Sequence record: NZ_CP137227.1
From: a plasmid
Direction: 5' to 3' (one strand)
Length of the DNA: 24,225 nt
Shown here: positions 8,965-24,225 of the stretch, in pieces
How positions within the stretch are numbered: position 1 is the stretch's first letter
Layout of the letters: each line of letters begins with the position of its first letter
Program-made: the position numbers and the translations under genes
The notes under the pieces: generated by a model
Told to the model about the DNA's origin: nothing
The model's input: only the letters and a program-made list of their open reading frames with translations
Database searches by the model: none

Positions 8965-9581
8965 CTAAACGGCTTTACACCTGGCCGCCTGAAGGGCAAC
9001 CGCTGAGGCTTCGCCATTAGTAATAGGGGAGGGACTTGTCTCACTGTTTTGTTGAGGTGAAGGCTTGCCCAGGCGATACCATTTAGCCCGGCTCATGCCC
9101 ATAGCTTCCCAGGGCTTTTGCCTGCTCAATGAGTTGGCTTCATAGGCTTCACGCTCAAGCTGGCCAGCGGCGCGGCGACGTTCTTCATCACGCAGTCTAT
9201 CGCGCTCTCTGCGGCGCTTCTGAGCCTCGTCAGTGCTGATAATCGTCTTCAGTTGCTCTTGTTCTTGCTGTGAGATCTGGAATAGGTTGATCAGCGTGTC
9301 GTTTTTGGGCGTGTATAGCGGTGCAAACGACTTTCCGCCGAACTCGACACGTTCCCCAGCCTCATAGGATTTCGCCTTGCTGTAGAGCGTCATAAGCTCT
9401 TTGGAGCGGTAAGACCAACGAGTATCCAGCTCGGAGGAAAGAGCGGCGGCCTCATGGTACATCTGGGCGCTGTTTGTTGCCCCGGAGAGAAGGAGAAAGT
9501 TAAGACGCCAGAAAAGATGCCTCATTCGCTCGCCTTCGTTGATTCCACCTCTGAGCTGGCCCAACTTGCGTAGGTCTTCCA
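8965..9581 (-). pseudogene. 5'-truncated replication-protein-like gene (the 'truncated repB' of the KPC platform); frame runs open into the Tn1721 IR
   Basis: 199-aa ORF with an Arg/Glu-rich stretch (RRRERDRLRDEERRR). The apparent start at 9564 is TTG, and the frame continues upstream into the IR, so the native N-terminus is missing. Rep identity is from recalled annotation only. Confidence 0.4.
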
Positions 9582-9619
9582 GGGGGAACCGCAGAATTCG
9601 GAAAAAATCGTACGCTAAG
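9582..9619 (+). repeat. 38-bp Tn1721/Tn21-subgroup terminal inverted repeat GGGGGAACCGCAGAATTCGGAAAAAATCGTACGCTAAG, res-proximal
   Basis: Read directly. Its partner (GGGGAGCCCGCAGAATTCGGAAAAAATCGTACGCTAAG on the minus strand) is at 13500-13537. Confidence 0.85.
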
Positions 9620-9973
9620 CTAAGGAAGGTCTGAAAAAGCCCCCGCTCGAGAAATGCATCCCAGCAACCATGCGGGTTACAGAGCGGTGATTTCGCGAAA
9701 CATGGGCTTTTTCAGAGCTTCCTTAGCGTTACGATAAAGCTAGCATGGAAACGATAGGTGCAAGCAAGTTAAGGGTTGCATCGCGCATGTCAATCTAGGC
9801 TATACCCTAACTTGATGTCAGGCAGGGCCGCGCCGCTTCGTCAGAATAGAGTCTGCTTTCCCATTTTTTGACACATGCCCGCGAAGGTTATAGATTTCAG
9901 CCTGACAGAAATGGGCTTTGAGGCACAACGGAACAGAAAGTGCACTTAAGCCGCCTTCAACCAAGGAGACATC
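9620..9973 (+). promoter_or_regulatory. res site / tnpR promoter region of the Tn1721-like module (TGTCAGGC / GCCTGACAGA half-site-like motifs)
   Basis: Position between the IR and tnpR. TGTCA-containing inverted motifs sit at ~9805-9830 and ~9900-9915. Sub-sites not mapped. Confidence 0.55.
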
Positions 9974-10534
9974 GTGCAGGGGCACCGCATCGGCTACGTC
10001 CGGGTCAGCAGCTTTGACCAGAACCCGGAACGCCAGCTGGAACAAACCCAGGTGAGCAAGGTGTTCACCGACAAGGCATCGGGCAAGGACACCCAGCGCC
10101 CCCAGCTCGAAGCGCTGCTGAGCTTCGTCCGCGAAGGCGATACAGTGGTGGTGCACAGCATGGATCGGCTGGCCCGCAACCTCGATGACCTGCGTCGCTT
10201 GGTACAGAAGCTGACTCAGCGCGGCGTGCGCATCGAGTTCCTGAAGGAGGGCCTGGTGTTCACTGGCGAGGACTCGCCGATGGCCAACCTGATGCTGTCG
10301 GTGATGGGGGCCTTCGCTGAGTTCGAGCGCGCCCTGATCCGCGAGCGGCAGCGTGAGGGCATCGCCTTGGCCAAGCAGCGTGGCGCGTACCGGGGCCGCA
10401 AGAAAGCCCTGTCCGATGAGCAGGCTGCTACCCTGCGGCAGCGAGCGACGGCCGGCGAGCCCAAGGCGCAGCTTGCCCGCGAGTTCAACATCAGCCGGGA
10501 AACCCTCTACCAGTACCTCCGCACGGACGACTGA
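9974..10534 (+). CDS. tnpR: Resolvase TnpR of Tn1721/Tn21-subgroup transposon
   Basis: 186-aa serine recombinase (MQGHRIGYVRVSSFDQNPERQ...). It lies immediately upstream of, and co-oriented with, a 988-aa Tn3-family transposase. Confidence 0.9.
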   Translation: MQGHRIGYVRVSSFDQNPERQLEQTQVSKVFTDKASGKDTQRPQLEALLSFVREGDTVVVHSMDRLARNLDDLRRLVQKLTQRGVRIEFLKEGLVFTGEDSPMANLMLSVMGAFAEFERALIRERQREGIALAKQRGAYRGRKKALSDEQAATLRQRATAGEPKAQLAREFNISRETLYQYLRTDD

Positions 10535-10537
10535 CAC

Positions 10538-13504
10538 ATGCCGCGTCGCTTGATCCTCTCGGCCACGGAGCGGGACACCCTGCTTGCGCTGCCGGAAAGC
10601 CAGGATGACCTGATCCGCTACTACACCTTCAACGACTCCGACCTGTCGCTGATCCGCCAGCGACGCGGCGACGCCAACCGCCTCGGCTTCGCCGTGCAGC
10701 TCTGCCTGCTGCGCTACCCCGGTTACGCGCTGGGAACCGACAGCGAGCTGCCCGAGCCGGTCATCCTGTGGGTGGCGAAGCAAGTCCAGGCCGAGCCGGC
10801 GAGCTGGGCAAAGTACGGCGAGCGCGACGTGACCCGTCGCGAGCATGCCCAGGAACTGCGCACCTACCTGCAACTGGCCCCGTTCGGCCTGTCCGACTTC
10901 CGCGCCCTGGTGCGCGAGCTAACCGAGCTGGCCCAGCAGACCGACAAAGGCTTGCTGCTGGCCGGTCAGGCCCTGGAGAGCCTACGGCAGAAACGACGCA
11001 TCCTGCCGGCGCTGAGCGTGATTGACCGGGCCTGCTCGGAAGCCATTGCGCGAGCCAATCGGCGGGTCTACCGCGCCCTGGTCGAACCACTCACGGACTC
11101 GCATCGGGCCAAGCTGGACGAGCTGTTGAAGCTCAAGGCCGGCAGCAGCATCACCTGGTTGACCTGGCTGCGCCAGGCACCGCTGAAACCCAACTCTCGG
11201 CACATGCTGGAACACATCGAGCGGCTGAAGACATTTCAGTTGGTGGACTTGCCCGAAGGCCTGGGCCGGCACATCCACCAGAACCGCCTGCTCAAGCTGG
11301 CCCGCGAGGGTGGGCAGATGACGCCCAAAGACCTCGGTAAGTTCGAGCCGCAGCGCCGCTACGCGACCCTGGCCGCCGTGGTGCTGGAGAGCACCGCGAC
11401 CGTGATCGATGAGCTGGTCGATCTGCATGACCGCATCCTGGTCAAGCTGTTCAGCGGCGCGAAGCACAAGCATCAGCAGCAGTTCCAGAAGCAGGGCAAG
11501 GCGATCAACGACAAGGTGCGCCTGTACTCCAGGATCGGCCAGGCGCTGCTGGAAGCGAAGGAAAGCGGCAGCGACCCCTATGCCGCCATCGAGGCGGTGA
11601 TTCCCTGGGACGAGTTCACCGAGAGCGTCAGCGAGGCCGAGCTGCTGGCCCGGCCGGAAGGCTTCGACCACCTGCACCTGGTCGGCGAGAACTTCGCCAC
11701 CCTGCGCCGTTACACGCCGGCCTTGCTGGAGGTGCTGGAACTGCGCGCCGCGCCGGCCGCGCAAGGCGTGCTGGCAGCCGTGCAGACCCTGCGTGAGATG
11801 AACGCCGACAACCTGCGCAAGGTGCCGGCCGATGCACCCACGGCCTTCATCAAGCCGCGCTGGAAGCCGCTGGTGATCACCCCGGAAGGCCTCGACCGGA
11901 AATTCTACGAAATCTGCGCCCTGTCCGAGCTGAAGAACGCCCTGCGCTCCGGCGACATCTGGGTCAAGGGCTCGCGGCAGTTCCGCGACTTCGACGACTA
12001 CCTGCTGCCGGCCGAGAAGTTCGCCGCACTCAAGCGCGAGCAGGCCCTGCCCCTGGCGATCAACCCGAACAGCGACCAGTACCTGGAAGAGCGTTTGCAG
12101 CTGCTGGACGAGCAGTTGGCCACCGTCACCCGCCTGGCCAAGGACAACGAGCTGCCCGATGCCATCCTCACCGAGTCAGGGCTGAAAATCACCCCGCTGG
12201 ATGCGGCGGTGCCGGATCGGGCGCAGGCGCTGATCGACCAAACCAGCCAGTTACTGCCGCGCATCAAGATCACCGAACTGCTGATGGACGTGGACGACTG
12301 GACGGGCTTCAGCCGCCACTTCACCCACTTGAAGGACGGGGCCGAGGCCAAAGACAGGACGTTGCTGCTGTCCGCAATCCTCGGTGATGCGATCAACCTC
12401 GGGCTGACCAAGATGGCCGAGTCGAGCCCCGGCCTGACCTACGCCAAGCTGTCCTGGCTGCAAGCCTGGCACATCCGCGACGAAACCTATTCGGCGGCCT
12501 TGGCCGAGCTGGTCAACCACCAGTATCGCCACGCCTTTGCCGCCCACTGGGGCGACGGCACGACCTCATCCTCCGATGGCCAGCGCTTCCGCGCGGGTGG
12601 CCGGGGCGAGAGCACCGGGCACGTCAACCCGAAGTACGGTAGCGAGCCGGGACGGCTGTTCTATACCCATATCTCCGACCAGTACGCGCCGTTCAGCACC
12701 CGCGTGGTGAATGTCGGCGTCCGCGATTCCACCTATGTGCTCGACGGCCTGCTGTACCACGAGTCCGACCTGCGGATCGAGGAGCACTACACCGACACGG
12801 CCGGCTTCACCGATCACGTCTTTGCCCTGATGCACCTGCTAGGCTTCCGCTTCGCGCCGCGCATCCGCGACCTCGGCGAAACCAAGCTGTACGTGCCGCA
12901 GGGCGTGCAAGCCTACCCGACGTTGCGCCCGCTGATCGGCGGCACCCTGAACATCAAGCACGTGCGTGCCCACTGGGACGACATCCTGCGCCTGGCCAGC
13001 TCGATCAAGCAGGGCACCGTCACCGCCTCGCTGATGCTGCGCAAGCTCGGCAGCTACCCGCGCCAGAACGGACTGGCCGTGGCCCTGCGCGAGCTGGGCC
13101 GGATCGAGCGCACGCTGTTCATCCTGGACTGGCTGCAAAGTGTTGAACTGCGCCGCCGCGTGCATGCCGGCCTGAACAAAGGTGAGGCGCGCAACTCGCT
13201 GGCCAGGGCGGTGTTCTTCAACCGCCTTGGGGAAATCAGGGATCGGAGCTTCGAGCAGCAGCGCTACCGGGCCAGCGGCCTCAACCTGGTGACGGCGGCT
13301 ATCGTGCTGTGGAACACGGTGTACCTGGAACGCGCCACCCAGGGGTTGGTCGAGGCCGGCAAGCCGGTGGACGGCGAGCTGCTGCAATTCCTGTCGCCGC
13401 TGGGCTGGGAGCACATCAACCTAACCGGCGATTACGTCTGGCGGCAGAGCCGCAGACTGGAAGACGGGAAGTTTCGGCCCTTACGGATGCCCGGAAAACC
13501 TTAG
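10538..13504 (+). CDS. tnpA: Tn3-family transposase TnpA (988 aa), Tn1721-type
   Basis: Full-length 988-aa ORF. The stop codon TAG (13502-13504) lies inside the 38-bp terminal IR, as is typical for Tn3-family elements. Confidence 0.9.
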
Positions 13505-13537
13505 CGTACGATTTTTTCCGAATTCTGCGGGCTCCCC
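13500..13537 (-). repeat. 38-bp Tn1721-type terminal IR (tnpA-proximal)
   Basis: cttagcgtacgattttttccgaattctgcgggctcccc is the reverse complement of GGGGAGCCCGCAGAATTCGGAAAAAATCGTACGCTAAG. Confidence 0.85.
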
Positions 13538-13802
13538 TTAATGACCAGCACAGTCGTGATGGCAAGGTCAGAATAGCGCTGAGGTCTGCCTCGTGAAGAA
13601 GGTGTTGCTGACTCATACCAGGCCTGAATAGCTTCATCATCCAGCCAGAAAGTTATGGAGCCACGGTTGATGAGGGCTTTATTGTAGGTGGGCCAGTTGG
13701 TTATTTTGAACTTTTGCTTTGCCACGGAACGGTCTGCGTTGTCGGGAAGATGCGTGATCTGATCCTTCAACTCAGCAAAAGTTCGATTTATTCAACAAAG
13801 CC
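13538..13802 (-). mobile_element. Remnant of an IS903/ISKpn26-like (IS5 family) element: terminal IR GGCTTTGTTGAATAAATCG (13784-13802, minus) plus the first ~65 codons of the transposase, truncated by the Tn1721-type IR
   Basis: The ORF 13501..13770 (minus strand) translates ...AKQKFKITNWPTYNKALINRGSITFWLDDEAIQAWYESATPSSRGRPQRYSDLAITTVLVIK and then runs into IR sequence. The IS903-type IR is read at the outer end. Confidence 0.75.
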
Positions 13803-13959
13803 CATTCAGTCCTCAATTTGTGCATTTTTTAAACGAAAAAAGGGTGTCTAATACGGTGAAATCATAGTATTACCAAAGTAATAAATAAAAAGTTATTTAA
13901 ATCAGTAATTTAGATTTGATTTGTAATACCTGGGTAATACCGCAGCATGGCTAAATTTT

Positions 13960-14128
13960 GTTTTTTTTCTTTTAAATCAGTGCGATAGCGTGATTTATCA
14001 CGCTGCGTTAGGTGTATAGCAGGTTAAGGGATAAAAAATCATCTTTTTTGGTAGGGGCGATCTACGTAGGTTAAGGACTAACTGGCTAAAAAGCGTTCAA
14101 TATTCCGTATTCATGCTTGCATGAATAC
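13960..14128 (+). promoter_or_regulatory. Candidate oriT (MOBF/R388-like): 8-bp hairpin AGCGTGAT-TT-ATCACGCT (13987-14004) followed 11 nt later by GTGT|ATAGC (predicted nic between 14015 and 14016), two GGTTAAGG(G/A) repeats and an IR GTATTCATG-cttg-CATGAATAC
   Basis: Compared from memory with the R388 oriT (IR2 ...GTGCG TATTGTCT|ATAGCCCAGATTTAAGGA...TTTTAAGGA). The AT-rich setting and position next to stbABC match MOBF11 plasmids. Confidence 0.5.
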
Positions 14129-14277
14129 CAGTACAACAAAAGTACATCAAAATTACATCAAAATTACATCACTTGAAGGTTGACAGTACAACAAAATTAC
14201 ATCATTCTTTGGTCATGAGGTAGCCAGTACAACAAAAGTACATCAAAAGTACATCAAAATTACATCAAAATTACATC
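14129..14277. repeat. stbDR-like arrays: two sets of 4-5 tandem 11-bp repeats (K)TACA(A/T)CAAAA flanking a -35 TTGACA, immediately upstream of stbA
   Basis: Set 1 at 14129-14170 and set 2 at 14225-14277 are read directly; an extra pair lies at 14185-14204. They resemble the R388 StbA-binding stbDR repeats in organisation. Confidence 0.6.
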
Positions 14278-14295
14278 ATTCTAAATGAGGGTACT

Positions 14296-14715
14296 ATGAA
14301 GCCCAAAAGTATCAGGGCGGCACTTCAGTTGATGTTGCCGGAAATAGAAGAAATGCTGTCACTGGGAGTTTCCAGGGAGGAAATTTATAAGGCAGTTTCT
14401 GAACGCTTCGGCCTGGAAGGTGTGAACGTTCGTAGCTTTGATACGTCCCTATATAGAGCGCGGCAAATCCGGAAAAATGGAATGCACAATACACATGAAA
14501 GGATGCCGAACAATGATGATAGTGTATTGCACAATACACAAAAAGGAGGTAGCGAGAAAGGTGCAGAGGAAAGTGTATTGCACAATACACAAACGCCGCC
14601 TGAGCCTGAACCGCAAGGAAGTGAAAAAAAAGAAAGTCCCGGCATTATTGATAAAGAGTTCTTCAATAAAATCAGTGAAGATTTCGACCCTAAGATGTTC
14701 AATAAAAAATTCTGA
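14296..14715 (+). CDS. stbA: StbA-like centromere/oriT-binding protein (139 aa): N-terminal HTH-like domain, C-terminal low-complexity tail with SVLHNTQ repeats
   Basis: First gene of a three-gene operon downstream of the 11-bp repeats. RBS GAGGG is 6 nt upstream. Assigned from operon context by analogy to R388/pKM101 stbABC. Confidence 0.55.
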   Translation: MKPKSIRAALQLMLPEIEEMLSLGVSREEIYKAVSERFGLEGVNVRSFDTSLYRARQIRKNGMHNTHERMPNNDDSVLHNTQKGGSEKGAEESVLHNTQTPPEPEPQGSEKKESPGIIDKEFFNKISEDFDPKMFNKKF

Positions 14716-14723
14716 GGTGATTT

Positions 14724-15440
14724 ATGAAAGTAGCGGTAATTAATTACAGTGGCAGCGTTGGTAAAACCTTAATTTCATCCTACCTGTTAGCCCCGCGTCT
14801 GACTGGAGCAAAATTCTATGCGGTTGAAACTATCAACCAGTCTGCTTCCGATCTGGGGATTGAGAATGTTTCCATTTTTAAAGGTGATGACTTTTCACGG
14901 TTGATTGAAGATATTGTTTTTGAAGATGCCGGGATTATTGATATTGGTGCGTCAAACGTAGAAGCGTTCCTGATGGCAATGTCCCGCTTTGACAGTGGCG
15001 CGAATGAATTTGATAAGTATGTAATCCCGGTTACGCCTGATAATAAGGCCATTGATGAAAGCCTGAAAACAGCACATACGTTAAGTAAGGCAGGTGTAAG
15101 CAGCGATAAAATCATCTTTGTTCCAAACCGCATTAGTCCAGATAGTGAAGTAGAGGATGTACTGGCGCCGGTATTTGAATTTGTCAAACGAACGAAAGTT
15201 GGCAAAATCAGCAAGAAATCTGTTATTTATAACAGTGAAGTTTTCGAATATCTCGCGTATCACCGTATCTCATTCGAAGCATTGACCGCTGAAGATCCAG
15301 AAGAATTTAAAGCCCGCGCTAAACAAACAACGGATGCTGACGAGCGCAAAAAACTGGCCCGCCGTTATACCTACATGAAACAGGCAATTCCTGTTAAAGC
15401 TAATCTCGATAAAGCATATGCGGCTTTAATGGGAGAATAA
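14724..15440 (+). CDS. stbB: StbB-like P-loop-like partition/stability ATPase (238 aa)
   Basis: N-terminal MKVAVINYSGSVGKTL is a deviant P-loop-like motif. Second gene of the operon. Confidence 0.55.
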   Translation: MKVAVINYSGSVGKTLISSYLLAPRLTGAKFYAVETINQSASDLGIENVSIFKGDDFSRLIEDIVFEDAGIIDIGASNVEAFLMAMSRFDSGANEFDKYVIPVTPDNKAIDESLKTAHTLSKAGVSSDKIIFVPNRISPDSEVEDVLAPVFEFVKRTKVGKISKKSVIYNSEVFEYLAYHRISFEALTAEDPEEFKARAKQTTDADERKKLARRYTYMKQAIPVKANLDKAYAALMGE

Positions 15441-15441
15441 A

Positions 15442-15810
15442 ATGGAAAAGCAGCCAGATAAATTTGAAGTTCTGATGGATTGGTTTTTAGGTGACGCGAA
15501 GGAAATCACCGCAAGTCAGAAAGAAATGACTGAGATACTTTCTGCGCTTTCGGAAAAGCTGGCAAAAGACACCGAAAGTTTAGGAGAGACGGCAGACTCT
15601 CTTAAACGGACTTTAGTAGAAAACCAGCGTTCAATTAGCCTGGCAATTAGTGATGATGCTAAGGCGCGTGAGGAATTTCTGACGAAGTTCCGCCGCGCGC
15701 AGGCGTCCAGAGCTGAGACGTTAACCCGTCAGATCCTTTTTATTACAGCTGGCTGCACTATTGTGGGCGCCGCCGTGGGTGCCGCGATAGCCATAATTCT
15801 ACTGAGATAA
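15442..15810 (+). CDS. stbC: StbC-like protein (122 aa) with C-terminal hydrophobic segment
   Basis: ATG overlaps the stbB stop (TAAAATG). Followed by a strong rho-independent terminator. Confidence 0.5.
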   Translation: MEKQPDKFEVLMDWFLGDAKEITASQKEMTEILSALSEKLAKDTESLGETADSLKRTLVENQRSISLAISDDAKAREEFLTKFRRAQASRAETLTRQILFITAGCTIVGAAVGAAIAIILLR

Positions 15811-15816
15811 TGTAAA

Positions 15817-15839
15817 CCGGGCATGTCCCGGTTTTTTTT
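15817..15839 (+). terminator. Rho-independent terminator CCGGG-catgt-CCCGG + T8 after stbC
   Basis: Read directly. Confidence 0.8.
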
Positions 15840-15840
15840 C

Positions 15841-15956
15841 AAGCGAAGCGCGGAGGCCGCAGGCCGGAGGCATTAGTGGCCGCCGCCCGAAGGGGCGAGA
15901 CGCGTAGCGGCTCGATGCGCAGCACGGCAGAACGGCCCCGCAGGGGTAATGCCCGG
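15841..15956 (+). repeat. GC-rich structured element copy A (~116 bp)
   Basis: Shares the core GGGCGAGACGCGTAGCGGCTCGATGCGCAGCACGGCAGAACGGCCCCG-CA-GGGG with copies at 17465-17577 and 18745-18866. Its ends pair (GGCATTA / TAATGCC). Confidence 0.7.
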
Positions 15957-15991
15957 TTTAATTCAACGTGACAGTCACGTGGAGGAAAAAT

Positions 15992-16336
15992 ATGAATGAC
16001 CGACAGCGTGAACAAGCCCGTATTCGCCAGGCCCGGCGCCGCGCGCGACTCAAAGAGGAAGGCGCTAGCGTGACAGTCACGCTAACAAAACAGGAAGAAG
16101 CAATGTTACAGGAGCTTTGCCGGGTTCGTCGTCCAGGACGAACAGCCTATTCCACGAATGAGTTTTTCCAACTGCTGCTGATCCGAAACTGGCAACAGTG
16201 GCAGGAGCAAAAGGCGCAGCTGGGGAAATGCCAGGCTTGCGGAAAGCTGAAAGCGGAGGGAGGTTGCGGCGGCGAACGGCAGAGCGAAACCTTTAACTGC
16301 TGGCTAGCCGTCGAAGCAAACGAGCTTAATGTGTAG
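15992..16336 (+). CDS. Ribbon-helix-helix-like DNA-binding protein (115 aa from ATG 15992; basic N-tail RIRQARRRARLKEEG, beta-strand ASVTVTLTK, helix EEAMLQELCRV; C-terminal CxxC...GGCGG)
   Basis: RBS GGAGG is 8 nt upstream of the ATG; the ORF-track start at 15968 is an upstream GTG. The palindrome CGTGACAGTCACG sits at its RBS (15968-15982) and again inside the gene (16066-16082). Confidence 0.5.
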   Translation: MNDRQREQARIRQARRRARLKEEGASVTVTLTKQEEAMLQELCRVRRPGRTAYSTNEFFQLLLIRNWQQWQEQKAQLGKCQACGKLKAEGGCGGERQSETFNCWLAVEANELNV

Positions 16337-16446
16337 TGTATTGTGCTATACAGAAATTGCCAAAAGCAGCGCGGAGTAATAACTGAAACGGCCGCGCAGC
16401 GGAAAGAAAAAAGCCCGGTCAATCCGGGTTTTTTTCTTTCGGCGGC

Positions 16447-16767
16447 TCAGTAATCGTCTAGATCTCCGCAGCCCAGCGGGCAACAATTACGCTCAATACC
16501 GTGGCTGCAATAATCGTTTTCCCGATCCTGCCGGATTTCTTCCGCGATCTCGTCTTGGGTCAGATAGTCAAATTCACGCCGCGCTACCGCGATCAGTTCT
16601 TCCCGATACTCGGCCGGAACGCCAGCAAGATAGCCGTCAATAACCGCGCTCAGGCGGCGCTGATACAGTTCATAAATCAGGCCGCAGCGGGGCTGCTGTT
16701 CGCGCGCAAAACTCTCACACTGGCGACGAAAATCTTCAAGAGTCTGCTCAAGGGTTTGTGTGGTCAT
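16447..16767 (-). CDS. Hypothetical acidic protein (106 aa) with C-terminal Cys cluster (CSHGIERNCCPLGCG)
   Basis: ORF downstream of, and co-oriented with, the 59-aa orf driven by CUP1. Confidence 0.45.
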   Translation of the reverse strand: MTTQTLEQTLEDFRRQCESFAREQQPRCGLIYELYQRRLSAVIDGYLAGVPAEYREELIAVARREFDYLTQDEIAEEIRQDRENDYCSHGIERNCCPLGCGDLDDY

Positions 16768-16822
16768 GTCGTTTGTCCTCGATCTTTCTGTTAAAGACCC
16801 GGCTTGGCCGGGTCGTCAGTGC

Positions 16823-17001
16823 TATTTAGTTTGTTGCAGCAGCTGGTCTAATTTTGCCGCCAGTGCATACGTCGATGTGAAAGCGCCTTGCAGGCGCTGA
16901 TTAGGCAGCTGGTTGAACGCTTCGAGGCAGGCGCGCAGCAATAATTCTTTCTGAGATTCGACTTCTTTTTTCAGCTGGGAAGGGGTGGTAACAGTGGTCA
17001 T
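16823..17001 (-). CDS. Small hypothetical protein (59 aa, MTTVTTPSQLKKEVESQKELLLRACLEAFNQLPNQRLQGAFTSTYALAAKLDQLLQQTK), first gene downstream of CUP1 promoter
   Basis: Hand-translated. Strong RBS AAGGAG 6 nt upstream of the ATG. Below the ORF-track cutoff. Confidence 0.5.
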
Positions 17002-17019
17002 GCTTACTCCTTAGTGATC

Positions 17020-17460
17020 CGATACCGGCAATTTTTCGGGTGGCGGTATTGCCTCCCGATGATTTAATTATCGGTGATTACGCCTTTAAAGTCAATACAA
17101 GTACGGAATTTATTTACATGTTTTTATGCCCGTCAGGGCATGGAAGGCGACCGCGCCGGACTCCACCGGACACCGGCCGCAAATCGCCGGAAACTGCGGG
17201 ACTGACCGGAGCAACAGGCCAACCCCCCTTCCTGCTAAGCCATAACCCAGCCCGCCGCCACGCAGCTGCCGCACGTCCCCCACGGGGGTGCGCAGTGGGC
17301 GCCGCGCGCCTGCGCGCGGGTACAGCGGCCCGCCTGCGGGTCGCGGCGCCGTACTGCGAGTTAGCGGCCGCCGCGCGGCCGGTTACGGGGGACACCGCAC
17401 CGTCACGGCCAGCGCCCCGCTGAGCTGCACAATCCACGGATAACACAATAGCGCACTGGC
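17020..17460 (-). promoter_or_regulatory. CUP1: ~440-bp conserved upstream (CUP) cassette of IncN plasmids; sigma70 promoter on minus strand (-35 TTGACT, 17-bp spacer, -10 GATAAT, at ~17050-17095) plus ~330-bp GC-rich body
   Basis: Near-identical to 18250-18690. A shortened copy is at 20280-20525 and a divergent inverted copy at 1095-1432. The six-frame ORFs within it (17040..17423 plus strand, 17114..17446 minus strand, 17383..17634 minus strand) are artefacts. Confidence 0.75.
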
Positions 17461-17464
17461 AAAG

Positions 17465-17577
17465 GATGCCGACGCCTGAAGGGCGTTGGCACCCCGAAGG
17501 GGCGGGGCGAGACGGGAACCGGCTCGATGCGCAGCACAGCAGAGCGGCCCCGAAGGGGTAACGCCCTGTGTGGCATC
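17465..17577 (+). repeat. GC-rich structured element copy B (~113 bp), abutting the GC-rich end of CUP1
   Basis: Same core as copy A. Its ends pair (GATGCC / GGCATC and GGGCGTT / AACGCCC). Confidence 0.7.
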
Positions 17578-17699
17578 AGGATTTAGCGCAATGGCAGAAC
17601 ATGAGCTGGAGAGATCACCGGCAAGCAGCAGCAAAGGGGCGGCGCAGCCGCCCAGATGGCTGTTTGCCGATACCGGCGATTAATTAGAGCGGTGTTTAA

Positions 17700-17722
17700 T
17701 ATCCCCCGCGTGGCGGGGGACT
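17700..17722 (-). terminator. Hairpin TCCCCCGC-gtg-GCGGGGGA just 3' of ardA (minus strand), followed by A/T-rich tract
   Basis: Read directly. Confidence 0.4.
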
Positions 17723-17727
17723 AGGTT

Positions 17728-18237
17728 TCAGCAAGTCATGTTAAATACGTGTCCGTCATGTAAACTGAAATCCCCAATAAACAGATCCCGCGCATAGGCT
17801 ACGATGTCAAAATATCGGGCTACGGATTCAGGAATTTCATTCAGTAGACCGCTATCATTCAGGTATTCCTCTGCAAAAGTTTCTTCGTCCTTAGCTTCGC
17901 CCATATAGGCATCTCTAAACAGGTCGAAATCAGTGCTATTAAACAGATCAACAAAGGCCACAAACGCCGCTTCGTTTCCTTCCTCGCGGGCTTGTTTAAA
18001 GCCGTTAATAAAATCCCAGTTGATATGGCACTCTGACGCCATATCAGACGGAATACCCTCCCAATCCTGGAACATAAATTCTGGATCAGCCTCATTTGCG
18101 TGTAACTCGCGGCAGCGCTCGTAAAACTCCTCTGAGCTATCAAAATCGGTCAGATCGAGCCAGGCTCCCGCAATGCTTCCGCAGTTGTATTTATGGTAAG
18201 TGCCAACATAAACAGAAGGGGTCGTAATATCAGTCAT
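17728..18237 (-). CDS. ardA: Antirestriction protein ArdA (169 aa, highly acidic; type I RM DNA-mimic)
   Basis: MTDITTPSVYVGTYHKYNCGSIAGAWLDLTDF... matches the ArdA family N-terminus. Located in the IncN leading region, downstream of CUP2. Confidence 0.85.
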   Translation of the reverse strand: MTDITTPSVYVGTYHKYNCGSIAGAWLDLTDFDSSEEFYERCRELHANEADPEFMFQDWEGIPSDMASECHINWDFINGFKQAREEGNEAAFVAFVDLFNSTDFDLFRDAYMGEAKDEETFAEEYLNDSGLLNEIPESVARYFDIVAYARDLFIGDFSLHDGHVFNMTC

Positions 18238-18249
18238 GGTGTACTCCTT

Positions 18250-18690
18250 AAAGCGCCGATACCGGCAATTTTTCGGGCGGCGGTATTGCCTCCCGATGAT
18301 TTAATTATCGGTGATTACGCCTTTAAAGTCAATACAAGTACGGAATTTATTTACATGTTTTTATGCCCGTCAGGGCATGGAAGGCGACCGCGCCGGACTC
18401 CACCGGACACCGGCCGCAAATCGCCGGAAACTGCGGGACTGACCGGAGCAACAGGCCAACCCCCCTTCCTGCTAAGCCATAACCCAGCCCGCCGCCACGC
18501 AGCTGCCGCACGTCCCCCACGGGGGTGCGCAGTGGGCGCCGCGCGCCTGCGCGCGGGTACGGCGGCCCGCCTGCGGGTCGCGGCGCCGTACTGCGAGTTA
18601 GCGGCCGCCGCGCGGCCGGTTACGGGGGACACCGCACCGTCACGGCCAGCGCCCCACTGAGCTGCACAATCCACGGATAATGCAGGAGAC
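18250..18690 (-). promoter_or_regulatory. CUP2 (full-length copy), promoter driving ardA
   Basis: Essentially identical to CUP1, including the TTGACT-17-GATAAT promoter (~18300-18345) and the CCGATACCGGC boundary motif. Confidence 0.75.
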
Positions 18691-18744
18691 GAATCATGAT
18701 AGGAGGCTGAAGGGGAAATGAGCGGCAGCAGGGGAAGGGGTTGC

Positions 18745-18866
18745 CAAGCGGAGCGCGGAGGCCGCAGGCCGGAGGCGTCAGTGGCAGCTGCCCGCGTGAG
18801 CGGGGCGAGACGCGTAGCGGCTCGATGCGCAGCACAGCAGAACGGCCCCGGAGGGGTGACGTCCGG
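18745..18866 (+). repeat. GC-rich structured element copy C (~122 bp)
   Basis: ~85% identical to copy A. Its ends pair (GGCGTCA / TGACGTCC). Confidence 0.7.
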
Positions 18867-18895: not shown

Positions 18896-19051
18896 TCAGT
18901 AAATCGTAGTGACACCATGAAGCAAAAGTATCGTGCAGACCAGAATCAACAACAGTAACAGCAGACCTTTTTTTCGACGTAATAAAACCGGCCCCAAAGC
19001 GCCCGCAAGAAGCACACTCAACACGATTTCCGTTATGCTAATCGTATTCAT
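18896..19051 (-). CDS. Small hydrophobic peptide (51 aa, MNTISITEIVLSVLLAGALGPVLLRRKKGLLLLLLILVCTILLLHGVTTIY); predicted two-TM membrane peptide
   Basis: Hand-translated ORF with a weak GAGAG RBS. Below the ORF-track cutoff. Confidence 0.35.
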   Translation of the reverse strand: MNTISITEIVLSVLLAGALGPVLLRRKKGLLLLLLILVCTILLLHGVTTIY

Positions 19052-19123
19052 AATCTCTCACGTTTCCCTTTTTAGAACTCTGCCACACACGGATAAAACC
19101 TTATAACAAAGCAACAAAACCCG

Positions 19124-19834: not shown

Positions 19835-20260
19835 TTAATCAATGGCACGATAAATACGATTCTGGCTTTCGTTCTCCAGCGTATTAACGTACTCCCGCAA
19901 CAGGTGATACCGGTTAGCCATCGTTTCGTTCAGTTCGGCTTTGCCTTCTTCATATGCCAGCCCGCAAAAGTAACTGTAGGCATACAGACAAACAATAATC
20001 CCTACTTCGCGCGCGCTGCATTCACCTTCAAAATAGTTAGGTAACGAGAGCCAAAGAGGTTGGGGCGCTTCCATAAAAAACGCGCCATTGCTGGCCTGAA
20101 GGTATTCCCAATACCCTCCCTGGTAGTCTTTAGCGTAACGATTCAGAAAGGACTGAATGAAGTGATCTGCGCTGAAGAAAGCGCCACGAAATGCCGCAGG
20201 CATGAAGTTCATGCGGGCGTTTTCAGAAATGTAGCGGGCGGTGATTTCGATAGTTTCCAT
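19835..20260 (-). CDS. ardB: Antirestriction protein ArdB (KlcA/ArdB family, 141 aa)
   Basis: Paralogous to klcA at 7617..8042 (shared YWE/WELSNG-FFMEAP and ...RAID C-terminus). First gene downstream of CUP3. Confidence 0.8.
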   Translation of the reverse strand: METIEITARYISENARMNFMPAAFRGAFFSADHFIQSFLNRYAKDYQGGYWEYLQASNGAFFMEAPQPLWLSLPNYFEGECSAREVGIIVCLYAYSYFCGLAYEEGKAELNETMANRYHLLREYVNTLENESQNRIYRAID

Positions 20261-20279
20261 GATACTTCCTCTTTAAGCC

Positions 20280-20525
20280 GATACCGGCGATGGTTAAGCG
20301 GCAGGCACATCACCTGCCACTTTTTAATTATCGTACAATGGGGCGTTAAAGTCAATACAAGTACGGATTATATTTACCTAATTTTATGCCCGTCAGAGCA
20401 TGGAAGGCGACCTCGCCGGACTCCACCGGACACCGGGGGCAAATCGCCGGAAACTGCGGGACTGACCGGAGCGACAGGCCACCCCCCTCCCTGCTAGCCC
20501 GCCGCCACGCGGCCGGTTACAGGGG
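20280..20525 (-). promoter_or_regulatory. CUP3: shortened CUP copy (internal ~190-bp deletion between short CCGCCGCCACGC / GCCGCCGCGCGGCCGGTTAC repeats), promoter for ardB
   Basis: Retains CCGATACCGGCGAT, the GTCAATACAAGTACG promoter core, the ATGCCCGTCAGAGCAT inverted repeat and the gcaaatcgccggaaactgcgggactgaccggag block. Confidence 0.65.
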
Positions 20526-20639
20526 ACACTGAGAAAGCAGAAAGCCAACAAACACTATATATAGCGTTCGTTGGCAGCTGAAGCAGCACTACATATAGTA
20601 GAGTACCTGTAAAACTTGCCAACCTGACCATAACAGCGA

Positions 20640-23337: not shown

Positions 23338-23666
23338 ATTTCCGAGGTCGTGATGTTATTAATGCTGTACTTCGCGGCTTCTTTTAAAACAGTTTCAGCA
23401 AGGCTTGCTGGTATCCAGACCTGAACTAATTTTAATGGTTCGCCGTTCTCGGCTTTAAGAGTGGTGTTCTGGTACAAATCCCAGATTCGCTTAACGGTGC
23501 TGGAAATGTTTTGCTTGGAACGGCCTACTCGCGTGGCTACGTCTGATGATTTCTCACCTTTGACAAGCACGGAATAGCCAATATCTGTTGTGATGTGTGC
23601 AAAGGAAGCCATTTGCGGCAGCAGCTGTTTCCATTCTGTTTCTGAAATTCTGTTTTTCTGAGCCAT
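23325..23666 (-). CDS. HTH transcriptional regulator (113 aa from ATG 23666, MAQKNRISETEWKQLL...); candidate autoregulated CUP-regulon repressor
   Basis: RBS GGAGG is 9 nt upstream of the ATG. Its promoter carries the CUP promoter core GTCAATACAAGTACG (23719-23733). HTH-like SDVATRVGRSKQNISSTVKRI. The ORF track's upstream start at 23726 has no RBS. Confidence 0.5.
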   Translation of the reverse strand: MAQKNRISETEWKQLLPQMASFAHITTDIGYSVLVKGEKSSDVATRVGRSKQNISSTVKRIWDLYQNTTLKAENGEPLKLVQVWIPASLAETVLKEAAKYSINNITTSEMEKK

Positions 23667-24039
23667 CTGTGGCGCCTCCGTAGTTTTGGTTACAGAAAGG
23701 ATATACTCAGAATAAACTGGGGTCAATACAAGTACGATTTTTATAAACTTTATTTTATTTGAGGGTGAGGCCCGGTGCGGCAGCAGCGCGGGCCTCGATG
23801 GTGCCGCGAAGGTGCTGGCGCCATGCTTGGATTAAAACATGAACCGTGAAGAACTGCGAAACTTGTTTTCGCGGTTCTGAGGGGTTGACCGAGCCGCGAA
23901 GCGGCGCTGGTAAGCGATGATATGCACATATCCACAGGCATATTTTTAAAAGGTATTTTATAGATTTTTTATCTTTTTAAAGTCTTTTAGAGCTATATAA
24001 CTCATTGATTTAAAATCATAAATAAGTGTTATCTCTGGG

Positions 24040-24145
24040 AATCCGCCCACCTTGTTATGGGAATTGGCCCACCTATCTATGGGAAACACCCCACCTTACT
24101 ATGGGAATTAGCCCACCTTGTTATGGGAATTGGCCCACCTTAGAC
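24040..24145 (+). repeat. Five tandem 22-bp direct repeats (consensus GAATTRGCCCACCTTGTTATGG), preceded by an AT-rich tract and a DnaA-box-like ATATCCACA at 23928-23936
   Basis: Copies read at 24040, 24062, 24084, 24106 and 24128 (the last partial). Confidence 0.7.
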
Positions 24146-24225
24146 GAAACTGTAAAAAATGTATTTACTTGTTTGAACTTTGTGGTAGTGTGGAGAGTAA
24201 TTTTTAACCCACAAAGGCAAGGCTC

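Follow-up and report, generated by a model that had tools for sequence, protein, structure and literature searches.

Folded single-stranded DNA (ssDNA) acts as a signal in several described systems. The phiX174-type primosome assembly sites (n'-pas), which are PriA-dependent single-strand initiation (ssi) sites, are strand-specific folded or branched signals on a template that needs conversion to duplex. The G4-type ssi sites, represented by the G4, St-1 and alpha3 origins and by ssiA and ssiB of RSF1010, are clusters of hairpins with GCGNAGC/GCGNNAGC-type mini-hairpins (PMC13037366). These mini-hairpins exclude SSB and mark primer start sites (PMC13037366); at RSF1010 the reader is the plasmid's own RepB' primase. 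The ssoA and ssoU sites of rolling-circle replication (RCR) plasmids are orientation-dependent, structured, non-coding starts of the complementary strand that are read by the host, some of them with a broad host range. The Frpo promoters (ssi classes 1-3 of F, ColIb-P9 and pESBL) are specific to the transferred strand (T-strand), lie in the leading region upstream of early genes and are active only as ssDNA (PMC11541004, PMC12672017, PMC9849209). Finally, the leading region of IncN plasmids carries CUP repeats of about 0.44 kb, which are double-stranded DNA (dsDNA) promoters and ArdK operators. Here we describe a GC-rich, multi-junction element found in three copies in the leading region of an IncN1 plasmid backbone of the pKM101/R46 type (24,225 nucleotides (nt) of record NZ_CP137227.1, hereafter the window). 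As far as sequence comparison can tell, its closest resemblance appears to be to the phiX174-type primosome assembly sites.

A strand-locked family in plasmid leading regions

The copies A (15840-15953), B (17465-17577) and C (18741-18859) all lie on the plus strand. Sequence, repeat families, alignment and a covariance model agree on them, at essentially the coordinates given by a sequence-only reading of the window. The 17-nt core GGCTCGATGCGCAGCAC occurs exactly three times in the window, where 0.41 occurrences would be expected even with three mismatches allowed. Run unfiltered over the whole window, the covariance model scores A at 85.1, C at 69.9 and B at 60.5 bits (E from 1e-18 for A to 1e-12); the next-best match has 13 bits and nothing but the three copies scores higher.

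The sequence-only reading had taken the plus strand to be the transferred one, provided that its predicted origin of transfer (oriT) was right. The published ssDNA substrate of pKM101 TraI (TGTGATAGCGTGATTTATCGCGCTGCGTTAGGTGT followed by ATAGCAGGTTAAGGG; PMC9868005, Table S1) bears this out. This oriT57 substrate, which holds the TraI recognition hairpin and the nic, matches the plus strand of the window at 13981-14037, placing the nic between 14015 and 14016. In the substrate, also given as TGTGATAGCGTGATTTATCGCGCTGCGTTAGGTGT followed by ATAGCAGGTTAAGGGATAAAAA, the post-nic 22-mer remains covalently bound to TraI (PMC9868005, Table S1). Accordingly, the plus strand is the T-strand with its 5′ end at 14016, and both transfer and the leading region run rightwards. 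The three copies start at 1.8 (A), 3.4 (B) and 4.7 kb (C) from the nic. As had been described from the sequence, A lies between two plus-strand genes, directly 3′ of the intrinsic terminator of stbC (a hairpin and T-run at 15814-15842, plus strand, found in a terminator scan), and B and C lie between minus-strand genes.

Matches of the covariance model, termed R1, comprise IncN-like plasmids (four copies each), R388/IncW (two), pDTG1/IncP-9 (two), F (two), an F-like Aeromonas plasmid (two), P. syringae PP1 (two), B. cenocepacia pBCK56, Thiomonas pXI1 (two), an integrative and conjugative element (ICE) inside an IncC plasmid (two), Xanthomonas and P. aeruginosa plasmids, a Variovorax contig and over 100 metagenome contigs. 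The family is also found in PromA-like plasmids. In PLSDB, a BLAST search with copy C finds 942 records. The copy of an Acidovorax plasmid finds 1,743, of which 89% are typed conjugative and which span Enterobacterales, Pseudomonas, Burkholderia, Xanthomonas, Serratia and others. An F-type copy with its flank adds at least 3,100 further records to the 1,743 of this beta-proteobacterial query copy, for a total of at least 4,800. A metagenome scan with a 24-nt core pattern was saturated, and a 17-mer scan of genome contigs was dominated by chance matches in high-GC genomes, with real matches only in two contigs (L057 and L061).

No match to the element was found by BLAST in a phage collection of 50,697 records, and the leading region of R64 (IncI1, 30-62 kb) holds no copy in 32 kb. 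No Rfam family matches the window at gathering thresholds, or the elements themselves at E<=5. Full-text literature searches with the core and module sequences found no paper, and the family is apparently undescribed.

The T-strand of other carriers was fixed from the nic, the oriT position, synteny with F or the relaxase operon. The element is on the T-strand in all plasmids where this can be determined: IncN1, IncN-like, IncW, IncP-9, F, pAsa9-like, PP1, pBCK56, pXI1 and the ICE. For example, in F the copies are carried by the strand that serves as template for ssb and the Frpo-driven genes. In the Acidovorax plasmid all tra genes are opposite in strand to the element, and in pPNP1 the leading-type genes are. 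The usual distance from oriT is 1.8-9 kb. Of 37 sources with two or more copies, 35 carry all of them on a single strand, and copies in both orientations occur in just two contigs (L258 and L262). Thus, the orientation of the element is locked to the transferred strand whatever the direction of the flanking genes, in the window and in about ten other plasmid families, and its position is the leading region.

The inverted pairs of the two remaining contigs (L262:1558-2013 and L258:6352-7942) are tight: their 5′ ends face each other across 280 and 376 nt. The plus-strand copy of L262 is strongly diverged, with all helices kept through compensatory changes, and the flanking open reading frames (ORFs) of both contigs have no Pfam match. 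In layout, these pairs resemble priming signals of opposite orientation at a vegetative origin.

Two further observations concern the spread of the sequence. Plasmids of about 100 kb of the IncI-gamma/K type (L003:9001-9180, e.g. PCN061p5) hold a nearly identical IncN-derived fragment with copy A and the start of orfD, beside yacAB and adjoining a floR/IS91 insertion; we rejected these matches as independent family members. A metagenome contig (L229:715-4300) carries a CRISPR array of 59 repeats with a period of 61 (repeat GGTCGATCCCCGCTCACGCGGGGGAGAC). One of its spacers (TTGCGAGGCTCGATGCGCAGCACGAAAGCCCG, ~2453-2484) matches the conserved core of the element, and hosts therefore target this invariant stretch.

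A sequence that is multi-copy, adjoins the recombinogenic CUP repeats and has moved as an IncN fragment (A and orfD) into IncI-gamma/K plasmids might be a selfish repeat, similar to miniature inverted-repeat transposable elements (MITEs) or repetitive extragenic palindromes (REPs), or a cassette-spreading recombination module that is in itself functionless. Neither terminal inverted repeats nor target duplications are present, the copies keep strictly to one strand (in 35 of 37 contigs with several copies) and to leading regions, their flanks are unrelated and the fold is kept through deep divergence. We rejected a MITE/REP-type repeat on these grounds and find the idea of a functionless repeat scarcely credible.

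A covarying multi-junction fold

The R1 model was built from 17 seeds with a hand-annotated structure; MAFFT failed to align the variable hp3 and hp5 regions. Covariation was assessed for 27 modelled base pairs in 136 model matches representing 121 distinct homologues. While this alignment is fitted to the model, the most telling helices are in sequence-anchored regions and were confirmed by eye in diverged copies. Across the distinct homologues, standard pairs are formed in 92.5% of cells, compared to 80.8% in column shuffles and 38-50% with slid partners. Two-sided changes affect 21 of the 27 pairs, and double-change cells number 307 compared to 84 in shuffles. None of 500 shuffles reaches any of these measures. 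The covariation at which the three window copies had hinted is therefore overwhelming in the family, and the secondary structure is under selection.

The core of about 90 nt has 65-75% G+C and helices of 3-6 bp. Helix P1 closes a three-way junction (P1, P2 and hp5), and P2 closes a four-way junction with hp2, P3 and hp4. P2 pairs 5′-GGGATT-3′ with 5′-AAGCCC-3′ and contains an invariant central A.G and a G.A at its inner end; diverged copies have GCGATG/CAGCGC, GTGATG/CAGCGC, AGGATG/CAGCCT or GTGATC/GAGCGC instead. P3a (CGAG/CTCG) varies to CAAG/CTTG in pDTG1 and L262, to CGATG/CATCG, with an inserted pair, in Xanthomonas, to CGAA/TTCG in R388 and to TGAG/CTCG. Variants of hp4 (TGC-GCA-GCA) include CGC-GCA-GCG and TCC-GAA-GGA; this hairpin is deleted in F and pDTG1 and longer in R388, where the tip GCGCAGC is kept. 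P1 exists in at least eight complementary forms. Otherwise, every helix is retained in diverged copies.

In copy A, the optional 5′ module (15840-15866) precedes the core at 15867-15955; it comprises CAAGCGAAGCGCGG with a mini-hairpin GC-GAA-GC (15843-15849), and next a hairpin GGCC-GCA-GGCC (15855-15865). P1 is GGCATTA/TAATGCC (15869-15875/15947-15953) and the P2 equivalent GCCG/CGGC (15882-15885/15925-15928). The further helices are hp2 CCC-GAA-GGG (15886-15894), P3a CGAG/CTCG (15896-15899/15911-15914), P3b CGC-GTA-GCG (15901-15909), hp4 TGC-GCA-GCA (15916-15924) and hp5 CCCC-GCA-GGGG (15936-15946).

Copy B has no 5′ module and matches the model at 17480-17567. Its P1, GGGCGTT/AACGCCC (17481-17487/17560-17566), sits inside an extra outer stem GATGCC/GGCATC (17465-17470/17572-17577), and is followed inwards by hp2 (17492-17502), P3a (17508-17511/17523-17526), P3b CGG-GAA-CCG (17513-17521), hp4 (17528-17536) and hp5 (17548-17558).

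Copy C has a 5′ module (CAAGCGGAGCGCGG, 18741-18766) with a mini-hairpin GC-GGA-GC (18744-18750) and the hairpin GGCC-GCA-GGCC (18756-18766). Its core (18772-18865) shows P1 as GGCGTCA/TGACGTC with one G.T (18770-18776/18853-18859), hp2 as CCCGC-GTGA-GCGGG (18787-18800), P3a at 18802-18805/18817-18820, hp4 at 18822-18830 and hp5 as CCCC-GGA-GGGG (18842-18852). The P2 equivalent GCTG/CAGC (18783-18786/18831-18834) is a compensated pair compared to the GCCG/CGGC of copy A. The end-pairings proposed by the sequence-only reading are thus all present, as are its GGCC-GCA-GGCC and CCCC-GNA-GGGG hairpins; its consensus spelling CCCCG-GNA was wrong, the loop G having been counted twice.

Several other structures were considered. 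An extended hp4 (Model II, GGC-TCG-(A)-TGC-GCA-GCA-CGA-(AA)-GCC), suggested by several single-sequence minimum free energy folds, is broken in L250, L057 and window copies B and C while the competing P3a and P2 covary, and was therefore rejected. We also rejected a dsDNA operator palindrome, given the nested multi-helix topology with freely covarying stems, and a coding sequence, given indels that are not multiples of three.

Next, we asked whether the fold belongs to DNA or RNA. A C(GNA)G loop caps hp4 in 110 of the 121 copies; at hp2 it is found in 68, and C(GNNA)G in a further 23 (together 91 of 121). C(GNA)G and GCGNAGC are described as "extraordinarily stable mini-hairpin DNA" motifs with poor SSB binding (PMC13037366), and such mini-hairpins have been reported at the complementary-strand origins of G4, St-1 and alpha3, at RSF1010 ssiA and at the single-strand promoters of N4 (PMC13037366). 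On the opposite strand, the conserved purine-purine mismatches and GNA loops become pyrimidine-pyrimidine mismatches and TNC loops. For 93 of 110 copies, DNA parameters favour the plus strand over its complement, by 2.0 kcal/mol on average; RNA parameters do so for only 48 of 110, i.e. there is no asymmetry. Based on the loop types, the purine-purine mismatches and the DNA energy asymmetry, we assign the fold to the plus strand, and we infer that the element acts as folded ssDNA.

A structured RNA made from the plus strand, either a small RNA (sRNA) or a cis-regulatory one, might likewise show a multi-junction fold with strong covariation, and purine-purine mismatches are typical of structured RNAs; G.U-compatible wobbles are also present. 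Nevertheless, no conserved plus-strand promoter and no consistent terminator are found at the element, and a sense-strand terminator stands directly upstream of A and of its counterpart L004:6031. The element is in sense context at A and in antisense context at B and C. C(GNA)G triloops dominate rather than GNRA or UNCG tetraloops, and the strand asymmetry is gone with RNA parameters. Moreover, there is no Rfam family and the element is confined to leading regions. A plus-strand RNA is, accordingly, very unlikely. The earlier proposal that the element folds in the incoming single strand and not in mRNA has indirect support: GNA loops, the DNA-only strand asymmetry, the terminator 5′ of A and the lack of a plus-strand promoter favour it, and the wobble counts given below do not settle the strand.

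Surroundings in the window and relation to known systems

In the same leading region, two CUP repeats have copy B or C next to their distal end, and the sequence-only reading had considered that the element may be part of CUP. The CUP upstream of ccgAI (17005-17443, minus strand; sigma-70 promoter TTGACT-17-GATAAT at 17095-17067) neighbours B, and that upstream of ardA (18242-18680, minus strand; promoter at 18332-18304) neighbours C. The CUP homology ends at 17443 and 18680, and is followed by unrelated spacers of 22 nt before B and 60 nt before C. The CUPs of ardB and ardK (20258-20530 and 23722) have no element according to the covariance model. With non-homologous spacers, two CUPs without an element, copy A without a CUP and most carriers without any CUP, the element lies outside the CUP homology and the suggestion fails.

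A CUP-like arrangement exists in IncW. In R388, a duplicated block of ~0.5 kb (L255:19639-20168 and 23645-24174) lies upstream of ardC and of another leading-region gene, and each block has a copy of the element at its distal end. In the window, about 40 nt (TTGTGTTATCCGTGGATTGTGCAGCTCAGCGGG) are common to the distal ends of the two CUPs (17405-17448 and 18642-18680) and, inverted, to the end of the repA iteron array (1100-1143); this sequence contains the DnaA-box-like TTATCCGTG. A partial CUP copy (1100-1416, inverted) adjoins the replication origin. We also considered the T-strand of CUP as a Frpo-like hairpin; the fold is not significant (z -1.6) and the candidate was dropped.

The remainder of the window is as follows. 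repA with 37-bp iterons occupies 1-1137, and a Tn3-family transposon 9573-13546, with 47-nt inverted repeats at 9573-9619 and 13500-13546 and tnpA at 10538-13504. IncN backbone homology begins at 13803. traK-traJ-traI, the neighbours of oriT in relatives, are absent from the window: the transposon fills their side of oriT and leaves the nic region intact. The stretch from oriT to stbA is 91% identical to pMNCF070. Between the nic and stbA, two clusters of 11-bp direct repeats (AAAGTACATCA/AAATTACATCA, 14117-14289), which vary in number compared to relatives, probably represent StbA-type binding repeats. stbABC (14296-15810) and orfD follow on the plus strand, then the CUP-controlled regulon ccgAII, ccgAI, ardA, ccgEIII, ardR and ardB on the minus strand, and after it mucAB, mpr and ardK. 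Between ccgEIII and copy C there is an unannotated ORF of 51 codons (MNTISITEIVLSVLLAGALGPVLLRRKKGLLLLLLILVCTILLLHGVTTIY, 18900-19054, minus strand), whose product has two hydrophobic stretches.

The second comparison is with Frpo, since Frpo-type promoter hairpins had also been suggested. Frpo is an imperfect hairpin of 200-330 nt with A+T that rebuilds -35 and -10 hexamers, unlike the 90-nt GC-rich multi-junction element, on or in which no promoter-like hexamer pair was found. In F, where ssiD and ssiE are Frpo promoters, the two copies (L269 13091-13176 and 18479-18564) lie 150-250 nt 3′ on the T-strand of Frpo2 and Frpo1, i.e. upstream of these promoters. The element is therefore a separate module beside Frpo1 and Frpo2, and not of the Frpo type. 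The published 329-nt Frpo sequences stop about 50 nt short of the core. Directly 3′ of one F copy on the T-strand is a polypurine (GAAGAG)n tract of ~70 nt (L269:13010-13085; record ~58009-58084, minus strand); together, tract and element have been annotated on the 'wrong' strand, as a hypothetical protein.

Proximity to Frpo2 and Frpo1 raises the possibility of an auxiliary module of single-strand promoters, in which the fold would recruit or position RNA polymerase or an accessory factor for adjacent genes templated by the T-strand. About 15 of 20 annotated copies do lie 45-900 nt upstream of a minus-strand gene, and two weak S. enterica "Frpo*" candidates of Samuel et al. extend into the first half of the core. 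We nonetheless judge this role distinctly unlikely. The -35 and -10 hexamers cannot form, the Frpo2-acrIIA4 construct of Samuel et al. works without the element, the downstream IncN genes have their own sigma-70 promoters, and neither the A-type copies nor L249:24941 have a gene to drive.

Finally, we compared the element with known complementary-strand starts. A 5′ module of the form CAA-GC(GNA)GC-GCG with a further GNA hairpin is present in 53 of 107 unique copies. Its 14-mer CAAGCGAAGCGCGG has a single counterpart in phiX174, identical at 14 of 14 positions (chance 0.01). This counterpart lies at 2355-2368 of the viral strand, in the intergenic region between F and G where the complementary-strand origin is located. 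This identity with the optional module, CAAGCG(N)AGCGCGG, does not extend to the core, which has no phiX174 counterpart; the best covariance model score there is 6.5 bits. The AAGCGG hexamer of the module is presumably common to n' sites.

The resemblance to G4-type sites lies in the hairpin clusters and mini-hairpins, and the element's hp2 (CCCGAAGGG) contains the CCGAAGG motif cited for RSF1010 ssiA; BLAST found no homology to the G4, St-1 and alpha3 origins in the phage collection. ssoA and ssoU differ from the element in belonging to Gram-positive RCR plasmids, in their dependence on RNA polymerase and in their RSB and CS-6 motifs, and share no homology with it.

A predicted start signal for the complementary strand

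The explanation towards which we tentatively lean is a folded signal on the T-strand that a conserved replication factor of the host would read in order to begin synthesis of the complementary strand. As the leading region enters the recipient, or is unwound, the core of ~90 nt would fold on the T-strand. Hairpins capped by C(GNA)G loops, being poor SSB binders, would leave an SSB-free branched fold, and this could be recognised by a conserved host replication factor, likeliest a PriA-type primosome, or primase. Synthesis of the complementary strand would then start at the element and run back towards the nic. In IncN, priming at A would quickly make stbABC double-stranded and expressible, and priming at B and C would do so for the CUP promoters, ccgA and ardA. 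Priming as such and the nature of the reader are, at this point, predictions.

Several findings speak for this explanation. The conserved junctions and mismatches suggest specific recognition rather than mere stability, and carriers that differ in relaxase, type IV secretion system (T4SS) and accessory genes suggest that the reader belongs to the host. The copy closest to oriT in the leading region (window A, L004:6031, L254:12031 and L249:20029) has no T-strand-templated gene to drive and sits 3′ of stbABC or SprT, genes that are unreadable until their complement is made, which favours priming over a promoter. The same is suggested by the IncN CUP promoters downstream of B and C, which are ordinary sigma-70 promoters and need dsDNA. 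Synthesis of the complementary strand in F is not abolished by rifampicin, and start sites independent of RNA polymerase must therefore exist there.

A reader supplied by the plasmid itself was also weighed. Leading regions with the element often encode ssb, DUF932, ParB-like and KorA/TrfB-like proteins, so the fold could be an ssDNA site for a plasmid-encoded or transferred protein (SSB, ArdC-like, ParB-like or DUF932) that serves protection or RecA/SOS control. No such gene is common to all carriers, however: the IncN1 window has neither ssb nor DUF932 and R388 has no DUF932, and relaxase and T4SS types vary as well (MOBF and MOBP; MPF_T, F and I). We regard this as very improbable indeed.

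The stability of the fold could instead serve as an obstacle. A T-strand roadblock or insulator would stall complementary-strand synthesis, or end ssDNA-templated transcription, when these arrive from the distal side, so that the region downstream of the fold stays single-stranded longer or early operons are kept apart. The extraordinary stability of the mini-hairpins fits this idea, as does a location between operons: in F, one copy separates the klcA-side operon from Frpo2 and the other psiA/flm from Frpo1, and in IncN the location is between ardA and the next CUP. An ssDNA promoter hairpin of F does stall complementary synthesis until UvrD resolves it, but the barrier mapped there is a different hairpin, ssp2. 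A plain barrier needs no conserved unpaired junction nucleotides, no A.G and G.A mismatches and no topology fixed across beta- and gamma-proteobacteria, and with IncN downstream promoters that need dsDNA a delay would be counter-productive. We therefore think a roadblock unlikely.

A number of observations weigh against a primosome-type signal on the T-strand. Known PriA sites are poorly conserved in sequence, unlike the strongly conserved core of the element, and the conserved CTG of primase start sites is absent from the alignment. The phiX174-like module is missing from half of the copies, B included, and we take the phiX174 match to lie just outside the 55-nt minimal n' effector, which is the adjacent hairpin. 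F already has Frpo transcripts able to prime. With regard to strand and position, one pXI1 copy is 18.5 kb from oriT, two of 37 multi-copy contigs (L258 and L262, from IMG/VR) hold inverted pairs, and wobbles number 49 G.T compared to 66 A.C overall, with 8 compared to 0 only in P3a and hp4, a statistic that does not settle the strand. As for the fold, RNAalifold alone recovers only P3 and hp4, and A and C, when folded singly as DNA, do not outdo shuffled sequences (z -0.01 and -1.6); copy B has a z-score of -4.3.

The conversion of the incoming single strand to duplex, and its expressibility, is a long-standing gap, especially for plasmids that, like IncN, IncW and IncF, have no primase of their own. 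The timing of strand conversion has recently been shown to control anti-defence gene expression and establishment. It is possible, although we would not call it likely, that the element is the missing start signal for conjugative complementary-strand synthesis independent of RNA polymerase, a natural ssDNA aptamer predicted from its sequence to recruit one host factor, e.g. PriA. If so, thousands of plasmids (F, R388, pKM101 and those of the IncP-9, PromA-like, Pseudomonas, Burkholderia and Xanthomonas groups), along with ICEs, would share one common and targetable step of establishment. A fold common to the model plasmids F, R388 and pKM101 offers a concrete cis element that can be deleted, and a marker for the T-strand and leading regions in unannotated contigs. 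The core is conserved enough for CRISPR targeting, as with the L229 spacer, and may be a broad anti-plasmid target. The element would also be a rare natural case of a complex functional structure made of DNA and not RNA.

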